A stretch of DNA of 64,000 bases, from sequence record PZ495249.1. The stretch is one strand, 5' to 3'. This DNA comes from a phage. The notes below the pieces were generated by a model. That model made no database searches and was not told the DNA's origin. It worked only from the letters and a program-made list of their open reading frames with translations. Below are positions 20,971 to 21,096 of this stretch, piece after piece. How positions within the stretch are numbered: position 1 is the stretch's first letter; the number at the start of each line of letters is the position of its first letter. Both the position numbers and the translations under genes were made by a program.

Positions 20971-21096
20971 TGCTCGCGAGGGAGGGATTCGAACCACTCA
21001 CCTCTGCCAGAGCCAACCAGATCTTTCGGGTAATTACTCCGTCCAACCATTTGATTAACCTGCTGGCAGCGTCCATCGCCCTTAGACTGCCTCGCG
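20971..21096 (-). tRNA. atypical 122-nt tRNA-like element (possible tRNA with ~50-nt insertion in the anticodon arm, or pseudogene)
   Basis: Perfect 7-bp acceptor pairing (20975-81 CGCGAGG with 21090-96 CCTCGCG); canonical T-loop GGATTCGAACC; internal 7-bp helix CTGCCAG/CTGGCAG (21004-10 / 21063-69) around a 52-nt loop. Confidence 0.3.

Follow-up and report, generated by a model that had tools for sequence, protein, structure and literature searches.

The described systems closest to the RNA considered here are the stable RNAs of the T4 tRNA cluster, tmRNA, YrlA and the GOLLD and ROOL RNAs. Species 1 and 2 of T4 (rnaC and rnaD) are stable RNAs which are co-transcribed with the tRNAs of the cluster, and to our knowledge no function has been found for them for decades. 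The 3′ part of rnaC is tRNA-like and comprises a T arm (CCGGG-UUCGAAU-CCCGG) and an 8-bp acceptor-like helix. The tRNA-Ala-like domain of tmRNA keeps acceptor stem and T arm, but carries a large non-tRNA insertion at the position of the anticodon arm. YrlA (Chen et al. 2014, PMC4201824), which also occurs in phages, is a modular RNA of 100-230 nucleotides (nt) whose ends pair and whose internal domain mimics the D and T arms of a tRNA. GOLLD and ROOL are structured phage RNAs of no assigned function, typically located beside tRNA genes (PMC5737381). Here, we analysed a stretch of 64,000 nt of phage DNA (sequence record PZ495249.1; the whole stretch is called the window in the following), in which a tRNA-like gene had been predicted at positions 20971-21096. 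The predicted element is indeed located on the minus strand, between tRNA-Asn (20820-20895) and tRNA-Tyr (21137-21220), which share its orientation. As best explanation we propose that this 122-nt element is the inner domain of a structured non-coding RNA of 227 nt (20905-21131, minus strand) from a widespread but uncatalogued phage family. This RNA is probably stable and active in trans, its conserved junction core being supplemented by a tRNA mimic as accessory.

The 227-nt RNA starts 5 nt past tRNA-Tyr and stops 9 nt short of tRNA-Asn. Its unconstrained minimum free energy (MFE) structure gives the helices P1, P2 and P3, the acceptor stem, a rod, P4 and P5, and so reproduces every helix of the model. 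The structure is specific for the minus strand, which folds at z=-3.21 (0/200 shuffles), compared with z=-0.77 for the complementary strand; G.U pairs present in the helices indicate the strand as well. The covariation of the scaffold was analysed in alignment A3, comprising 37 distinct sequences from which the inner domain was cut out. Here 94.0% of the cells are paired, compared with 71.3% in column shuffles, and double changes occur in 186 cells, compared with 54.3 after shuffling (0/500) and 15-32 for partners shifted by 1-3 columns. Double changes were found for 6/8 pairs of P1, 6/8 pairs of P2 and 3/3 counted pairs of P4. The 3′ strand of P2 was picked by a script on the basis of complementarity (at least 7/8) beside fixed anchors, and P1, P4 and P5 were placed by anchors only. 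This selection inflates the percentage of paired cells in P2 (99.3%), but leaves P1, P4 and the count of pair types unaffected; P1 took no part in the selection of sequences and covaries regardless. A second alignment (A4) contains 21 distinct top halves of the inner domain, i.e. acceptor stem plus T arm, and shows double changes in 11/12 pairs and in 51 cells, compared with 11.1 after shuffling (0/500). Perfect pairing was a criterion for the inclusion of sequences in A4, so that the information lies in how diverse the pair types are, and not in the percentage of paired cells. A covariance model of the scaffold (R1) gave 51 matches in the fetched member loci, some of them outside the training set, and none in the chance pattern loci; its sole match in the window is the 227-nt RNA, with 42.7 bits (E 8e-9). 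Compensatory evolution is seen in five helices and about 50 loci of unrelated phages, and the 227-nt fold is selectively maintained.

Read on the minus strand, the RNA opens with the 5′ strand of P1 (GUUGAGAG, 21124-21131), which pairs with the 3′ strand CUCUUAAC at the other end of the molecule (20905-20912). In P1 a change from GAG/CUC to GUG/CAC is an example of a compensatory switch. The following AG (J1/2, 21122-21123) is invariant in A3 and part of the near-invariant GAGAGC, and leads to the 5′ strand of P2 (CUUUAGUG, 21114-21121). Its partner CACUAAAG (20965-20972), located by alignment and mapping, follows the inner domain after the 2-nt linker AG (20973-20974). In relatives, CUUUAGUG/CACUAAAG is replaced in a compensatory manner by CUUUAGAG/CUCUAAAG and by CUUCAGAG/CUCUGAAG, and a comparison of the long-range pairing gives UUGAGAG/CUCUUAA for the window and CUGAGAG/CUCUCAG for phage phiEa21-4. 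Between the 5′ strand of P2 and the inner domain lies the capping hairpin P3 (UCUG-AAUUGA-CAGA, 21097-21110), which is found by MFE folding and has a similar small counterpart in most tRNA-like members. The 3′ module consists of J2/4 (GGAG) and the P4 hairpin CCUG-GAAA-CAGG (20949-20964), of J4/5 (AGAAAAUAACACGA, 20935-20948), with UAACACGA invariant in A3, and of the P5 hairpin GGCG-ACUGAUGAAACG-CGCC followed by UA (20913-20934). The stem of P5 is invariant, and a fifth pair is A.G, U-A or C-G. P1 and P2 enclose the inner domain, and the 3′ module with P4, the invariant AAUAACACGA and P5 closes a four-way junction.

The architecture of the family was drawn from 46 loci. Its 5′ part comprises P1 (N5 plus GAG with CUC plus N5), AG and a P2 of 8 bp with C-G as first and G-C as last pair. 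The inner part begins with a G and the small hairpin P3, continues with a domain closed by a stem and ends with a 2-nt linker (NG) before the 3′ strand of P2. Thereafter follow GGUA, GGGA or AAGA, P4 (often with a GNRA loop), (G)AGNAAYUAACACGA, P5 (GGCG[A/U]..[G/A]CGCC), UA and the 3′ strand of P1. About 30 nt of the junction are near-invariant (GAGAGC ... GGNAGC ... AAYUAACACGA-GGCG...CGCC-UA-CUC), and the length of the RNA ranges from about 190 to 300 nt across the family. The segment 21131-20905 of the window carries every element of the scaffold family and shares the location in a same-strand tRNA array.

The inner domain (20975-21096) is the part that had been recognized before. The features described in the original prediction are present: CGCGAGG (20975-20981) and CCTCGCG (21090-21096) are complementary and span 122 nt, the T-loop sequence GGATTCGAACC directly adjoins CGCGAGG, and CTGCCAG (21004-21010) and CTGGCAG (21063-21069) form a perfect 7-bp helix around 52 nt. 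The pattern is non-random, since the minihelix of acceptor stem and T arm recurs in register in at least 20 distinct homologues, with the double changes given above for A4, and related phages keep the acceptor complementarity with compensatory changes, a loss of which would have spoken against the element. Regarding its extent, the interval 20971-21096 marks a real element but covers only the inner domain of the larger RNA at 20905-21131; the 126-nt stretch alone folds at z=-2.5. In the order of the minus-strand RNA, the domain is composed of the acceptor 5′ strand CGCGAGG (21090-21096), CA, a D arm with GG in its loop (GUCU-AAGGGCGAU-GGAC, 21071-21087), G, a 66-nt rod (21004-21069), AGGU, the T arm GAG(U)GG-UUCGAAU-CCCUC (20982-20999) and the acceptor 3′ strand CCUCGCG (20975-20981). 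The acceptor stem has 7 perfect base pairs, C3-G70 among them, and covaries in the family; homologues of the Fifi451 type have GUCU...AGAC in the D arm, and the T arms of the family follow a 5-7-5 scheme with the loop UUCRANU. Acceptor stem, D arm and UUCRANY-type T-loop are thus those of a tRNA, as had been claimed, but the T stem is imperfect, with one bulged U as read from the sequence. Between rod and T arm lies a variable region of 4-5 nt. The rod is built from the 7-bp helix CUGCCAG/CUGGCAG, a 9-bp helix, distal helices and a terminal loop of 4 nt, as given by MFE folding and by comparison with L046, a 148.7-kb contig of IMG/VR that is near-identical to the window at this locus. The two rods differ by four substitutions, one of them in a 2-nt bulge and three at paired sites (two A-U to G.U, one U.G to U-A). 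Because every paired-site difference conserves the pairing, this comparison indicates that the rod helix is real.

The inner domain has the 7-bp acceptor stem, the D arm with GG, the UUCGAAU T-loop, a variable region of 4-5 nt and extra sequence at the place of the anticodon arm, and this speaks for the earlier reading as a tRNA with an insertion of about 45 nt, or a short intron, in the anticodon loop. This reading is not supported by the structure found here, in which a continuous rod with a 4-nt end loop is present and a 7-nt anticodon loop is absent. Neither ARAGORN nor Rfam 15, at the gathering threshold and at E<=10, reports a tRNA, an intron or a tmRNA in 20880-21150, and the tRNA model RF00005, for which a call requires 29 bits, gives nothing for the window copy at E<=10. 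The core of a group I intron (P3-P9, at least about 200 nt) likewise has no Rfam match at the element, where the extra sequence relative to a tRNA amounts to about 47 nt and the body from the acceptor 5′ strand to the T arm to 91 nt. The domain shares acceptor, D and T arms with the canonical tRNA, but in the DNA its termini continue into neighbouring helices: P3 adjoins acceptor position 1 with zero linker, the 3′ strand enters P2 after AG, and A-G-C instead of NCCA follows the acceptor. In addition, the bodies of the homologues are unrelated and no anticodon is conserved; Trp is the only one of the 20 amino acids for which the array has no tRNA, and the rod holds no CCA anticodon loop. A functional tRNA with a short intron is for these reasons the least probable of all explanations considered. 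The alternative that had been offered, a disabled tRNA-derived RNA, comes closer, but misses that the acceptor ends are joined, through the capping hairpin and the 2-nt linker, to P2 and P1 of a conserved larger RNA. According to the structural model, the inner domain of the window would be a tRNA mimic unable to decode.

An imperfect T stem and the absence of a tRNA call by covariance models might also be expected from a decaying tRNA pseudogene or a chance spacer, and annotators have placed coding sequences (CDSs) for a hypothetical protein at this spot, including a CDS of 36 amino acids (aa) at the homologous position of two relatives. We consider a pseudogene, a spacer or a small protein gene very improbable, given compensatory evolution in five helices and about 50 loci and a structure which is strand-specific. 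Loops and inner domain vary in length by steps other than multiples of three, and the members share no reading frame. A mini-ORF with a Shine-Dalgarno-like GGAG in the 3′ module was rejected as a candidate, as loops of 8, 10 and 12 nt break its frame.

The phage of the window is phi92-like (Stephanstirmvirinae), and its nearest cultured relatives are the Klebsiella phages phi1_175008, FKP3, KP2025 and KP13-26. The spacer between tRNA-Asn and tRNA-Tyr of these Klebsiella phages contains a tRNA-like element of about 75 nt, compared with 122 nt in the window, and its flanks, about 70 nt downstream and about 35 nt upstream, show a higher conservation than the tRNA-like element. By sensitive blastn, the T arm and the downstream block were detected in 59 phage records, from phages of Erwinia, Yersinia, Salmonella, Pectobacterium, Serratia, Citrobacter, Aeromonas, Hafnia and Enterobacter that belong to the Ounavirinae, Chaseviridae and Vequintavirinae and include one jumbo phage. 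About 35 further members, from uncultured viruses, came from two pattern scans of IMG/VR. The scaffold is thereby present in about 50 loci of Stephanstirmvirinae, Ounavirinae, Chaseviridae, Vequintavirinae, jumbo phages and uncultured viral contigs. In a pattern scan of bacterial genomes, nearly all of the matches listed are chance matches in GC-rich genomes, with one plausible candidate (L142) from a metagenome-assembled genome of Acidobacteriaceae; no copies were found in the E. coli chromosomes and prophages searched. Existing annotations at the locus are tRNA-OTHER, tRNA-Undet, tRNA-Phe, tRNA-Gln, hypothetical protein, or none. Comparison of 15 member loci, including compact ones, with Rfam 15 at E<=1 returned no family for the scaffold and only tRNA for two inner domains, and a literature search by sequence words and topic found no description.

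Two further observations were made at member loci. An uncultured viral contig of 67 kb (L067) contains two copies of the scaffold (8981-9084 and 9380-9461), about 380 nt apart within an array of 20 tRNAs. In Erwinia Chaseviridae (L005, about 1440-1490; L015, about 1330-1400), a conserved GC-rich block (GGGAGGAUGGCCGAUGCCC...GGCCCAG) is located just upstream of the RNA and may be another structured element.

Across the family, the inner domain ranges from a plain hairpin through a tRNA-sized domain to about 190 nt. Most enterobacterial phages have an inner domain that mimics the L-shape of a tRNA with a 7-bp acceptor stem, D arm and T arm, but without anticodon loop and, as encoded, without free ends. 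The body is tRNA-sized (39-48 nt) in the versions of Klebsiella and Citrobacter phages, phiEa21-4 and the Serratia phage, where it shows 6-nt 'anticodon' loops or a stub capped by UUCG. It is longer (87-144 nt) in the window (91 nt), L046, Fifi451, Yersinia phage P778 and Pectobacterium phage Arno162. The 'anticodon' region is unrelated among the homologues. Several uncultured members have a three-way junction with a T-like hairpin. L142 has a plain hairpin, non-tRNA folds are found in L035, L054, L061 and L107, and a tRNA-like part is missing in L142, L035, L054 and L061. Only two inner domains pass the Rfam tRNA threshold (RF00005), those of phiEa21-4 (50.2 bits) and of the Serratia phage (31 bits), which are annotated as tRNA-OTHER/Undet and tRNA-Phe. 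The inner domain of the window is 66% identical to that of Erwinia Chaseviridae and 50% to that of the Klebsiella relatives, whereas its 3′ scaffold is 76% identical to Erwinia Chaseviridae and 91% to the Klebsiella relatives. Since these similarities run in opposite directions, the sequence comparison indicates that inner modules have been exchanged between phage lineages. As an observation on the acceptor stems, G3:U70 occurs in 7/21 distinct top halves of A4 (L001, L004, L007, L008, L011, L042, L097), together with a discriminator U and no encoded CCA. G3:U70 is the identity pair of alanine tRNAs and is found in tmRNA as well; it is absent in the window.

ARAGORN predicts about 25 tRNA genes in a row on the minus strand of the window, and Rfam adds two. 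The nearest promoter-like site upstream of the RNA is located at 21755. Because no terminator-like site was found in the window between this position and the RNA, the latter is presumably part of a polycistronic tRNA precursor and would be freed by the processing of its neighbours. At most member loci the RNA is located in or beside a same-strand tRNA array, often 8-20 nt upstream of a tRNA, but Chaseviridae and some uncultured contigs have the RNA without a tRNA in the fetched stretch. In Ounavirinae and in the Serratia phage, a promoter of the type TTGACA-N17-TTGAAT places the start at P1, and a second promoter follows the RNA. With a promoter of its own and another one behind it, the molecule closed by P1 would be made as an independent unit, which argues for a trans-acting product and not for a cis signal that serves the downstream tRNAs. 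A protein of about 120 aa encoded upstream was tried as a conserved feature of Ounavirinae and Chaseviridae and rejected, as the proteins are not homologous. In Felix O1 (L250, AF320576), a 17-nt remnant of the 5′ part (ACGAGAGCUUUUCUAAG) is found at about 7478-7495 between two promoters, right after a DUF2828 gene. At the syntenic place, phiEa21-4 has the full RNA and the DUF2828 gene is absent.

These data also bear on the possibility that the RNA is a cis-acting element of the tRNA operon, i.e. a processing stalk, an entry site for an RNase, or a put-like or anti-Rho polymerase signal for the untranslated array. Long untranslated arrays plausibly need protection from Rho, and the tight adjacency to tRNAs (5 nt and 9 nt in the window, 8-20 nt upstream of a tRNA elsewhere) as well as the position at the head of the array in Ounavirinae would suit such an element. 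A new promoter behind the RNA in Ounavirinae, its mid-array position in the window, and the lack of tRNAs in the stretches fetched around it from Chaseviridae and several uncultured contigs do not, and about 30 invariant junction nucleotides exceed what a nuclease stalk needs. On balance, a role in cis seems rather unlikely to us.

Our preferred explanation, a stable RNA acting in trans, can be outlined as follows. The RNA would be co-transcribed with the tRNA array, and the whole molecule would be released when tRNA-Tyr and tRNA-Asn are processed; that the mature species is the whole P1-closed RNA appears quite likely. It would not decode but act in trans as a stable RNA, which we hold to be somewhat more probable than not. 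The core with its roughly 30 invariant nucleotides might provide the function shared by the family, which could be the binding of a conserved partner or ligand. The tRNA mimic would be an accessory part, comparable to the modules of Y RNAs, that either confers tRNA-like handling and stability or tethers a tRNA-binding factor; by analogy, we suggest such a specific role only tentatively. One may also speculate that P3 shields the acceptor from RNase P. Several points weigh against the explanation as a whole, among them the selection of sequences mentioned above for P2 and for A4. Action in trans and the function are what we infer from architecture and context. Owing to the bulged U in the T stem, the mimicry in the window may be weaker than in its relatives. 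The family may be described in literature out of reach of our search. Moreover, a Ro-like DUF2828 gene lies about 1 kb from the RNA in the Klebsiella relatives, so a role similar to that of Y RNAs may apply in some lineages, though not in general.

Such a role would mean that the closing stem binds the ring of a Ro-like protein (DUF2828/DUF7788) and that the tRNA-like module tethers an effector. The gene of the Klebsiella relatives, in the same array upstream of the RNA, encodes 476 aa with DUF2828 and DUF7788 and shows a faint match to vWA_Ro60 (E 0.0046); mycobacteriophage homologues are annotated as 'Ro-like RNA binding protein', and a homologue of a Listeria phage is Rsr-like by HHpred (PMC12282133). 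The RNA itself resembles YrlA (PMC4201824) in combining a closing stem with a tRNA mimic, P1 having 8 bp of which 6/8 covary. In other respects the two RNAs differ. The tRNA-like domain of YrlA is permuted, in the order T arm, closed acceptor-like hairpin and D arm, whereas the arms of our RNA follow the normal order of a tRNA. YrlA has a Ro-binding site (GNCGAAN0-1G) near its 5′ end, whereas the 5′ end of the scaffold is N5-GAGAGC-P2 in 37/37 sequences, and the four-way junction has no counterpart in YrlA. An Ro60/Rsr gene on the same strand within about 4 kb is a mark of YrlA, whereas a Ro-like DUF2828 gene is found near the scaffold in some relatives only and neither Ro60 nor DUF2828 is an obligatory neighbour. 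The 64-kb window contains no DUF2828 or Ro-like gene, and the slot where it usually resides is deleted; the complete genome of phiEa21-4 has the RNA but not DUF2828. Conversely, Felix O1, Whirlwind, LMTA-34, VH7D, CPX and GAP32 have DUF2828 with no scaffold RNA nearby. After searches in Pfam and in PDB sequences, a tblastn search of phages and inspection of six DUF2828 neighbourhoods and of the phiEa21-4 genome, we rejected a Y RNA with DUF2828 as general explanation, and a Y-RNA-like partnership must be called improbable.

A ribozyme or an aptamer for a small molecule is a further alternative for the junction core, which might for instance cleave itself in the maturation of the array or act as a sponge for a signalling nucleotide; the tRNA-like part would then merely give stability. 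As a heuristic, junctions of several helices in which many unpaired nucleotides are invariant and the periphery varies are the usual signature of ribozymes and aptamers (PMC5737381). The family fits this signature, and its core is conserved across very distant phages. Rfam, on the other hand, yields no ribozyme or riboswitch match, the RNA is not consistently found in 5′ untranslated regions, and neither an expression platform nor a terminator follows it. We judge this alternative unlikely, even though we rank it first among the rivals, before the cis-acting operon element and the Ro-like partner in some lineages; the intron-containing tRNA, the pseudogene and the small protein are effectively excluded. 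The P5 loop of the window contains the sequence CUGAUGA as in a hammerhead ribozyme; this candidate was rejected, as the sequence is not conserved in relatives.

With the T4 species 1 and 2, the RNA shares the location in a phage tRNA cluster and presumably the co-transcription with tRNAs. The tRNA-like part of the T4 RNA is situated at its 3′ end, whereas that of our RNA is enclosed by helices between leader and trailer. As members of the family, rnaC and rnaD were rejected, having no homology to the scaffold in sequence or structure: with filters off, R1 scores at most 9.5 bits in the T4 tRNA region, and not on either of the two genes. The blastn search gave no T4-like match. GOLLD and ROOL are much larger (about 400-800 nt), have no embedded tRNA mimic and share no motifs with the scaffold, and Rfam detects neither GOLLD (RF02032) nor ROOL in the window. 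In one member locus (L061), located on a 340-kb viral contig of a jumbo phage, a GOLLD match with 149.7 bits (gathering score 150) is found at 3495-3910, 1.6 kb downstream of the family member and among tRNAs. With tmRNA, our RNA has in common that acceptor stem and T arm occur together and that a large insertion unlike tRNA replaces the anticodon arm. It lacks a tag reading frame and pseudoknots, its acceptor ends continue into P3 and P2 in the DNA, and the window has C3-G70; ARAGORN and Rfam detect no tmRNA in the window.

The RNA resembles the tRNA-mimicking or tRNA-cluster-associated stable RNAs in kind, with a substantial chance of forming a class of its own. We see a nearly even chance that it stands for a new class of phage non-coding RNA, in which a conserved four-way-junction core of about 85 nt serves as a socket for swappable inner domains, most often a capped tRNA mimic without anticodon, and which is made in bulk from tRNA operons. 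If so, the activity of the core might be the binding of a host factor of translation or tRNA processing, the binding of a small molecule, or catalysis, and this would account for the presence of the RNA in the tRNA arrays of very different phages. It would be a third RNA associated with tRNA arrays beside GOLLD and ROOL, although much smaller, and could illuminate the T4 species 1 and 2.

Phage tRNA arrays are under active study as counter-measures to host defences that target tRNAs, and apart from tRNAs only the unexplained stable RNAs of T4 and the large RNAs GOLLD and ROOL have been recognized as their RNA companions. Besides many uncultured viruses, the carriers of the RNA described here are cultured and genetically tractable phages of Klebsiella, Erwinia, Salmonella, Serratia, Yersinia, Citrobacter, Pectobacterium and Aeromonas. 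Its recognition corrects the inconsistent annotation as tRNA-OTHER, tRNA-Undet, tRNA-Phe, tRNA-Gln or 'hypothetical protein'. Grafted on a conserved junction, its inner domain is also a natural case of a tRNA mimic whose ends would be blocked. As a target for deletion and pull-down experiments, it makes the role of non-decoding RNAs in phage tRNA clusters testable.

Some further observations concern the tRNA array of the window. Compared with L046 (6471-9301), about 2.5 kb are missing in the window at 21711-22066, between tRNA-Ser(UGA) and tRNA-Sup(CUA). In relatives, the missing segment holds the Ro-like DUF2828/DUF7788 gene and a tRNA-Arg(UCU), and in FKP3 an HNH endonuclease instead. In KP2025 (L003, PP919962), a 'tRNA-Arg-TCT' of 432 nt is annotated over the DUF2828 CDS (5523-5954), which is probably an annotation artefact; relatives of KP2025 have a tRNA-Arg of 77 nt just downstream of this CDS. 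A gap of 140 nt between tRNA-Ser(GCU) and tRNA-Lys (21304-21443, minus strand) contains no called gene. The two tRNAs found by Rfam and missed by ARAGORN are a tRNA-Cys(GCA) at 22673-22746 and an odd tRNA-like sequence at 21776-21853, both on the minus strand. The latter scores 33.7 bits, has UCU in a loop and a long extra arm, lacks a normal D arm, and is a second non-standard tRNA-like gene of this array. Finally, the gene at 22066-22140 (minus strand), labelled 'Pyl' by ARAGORN, encodes a tRNA of the amber-suppressor type with the anticodon CUA. This tRNA is conserved in L046, KP2025 (annotated as tRNA-Sup-CTA) and KP13-26, and may point to read-through or recoding of TAG in this phage group.

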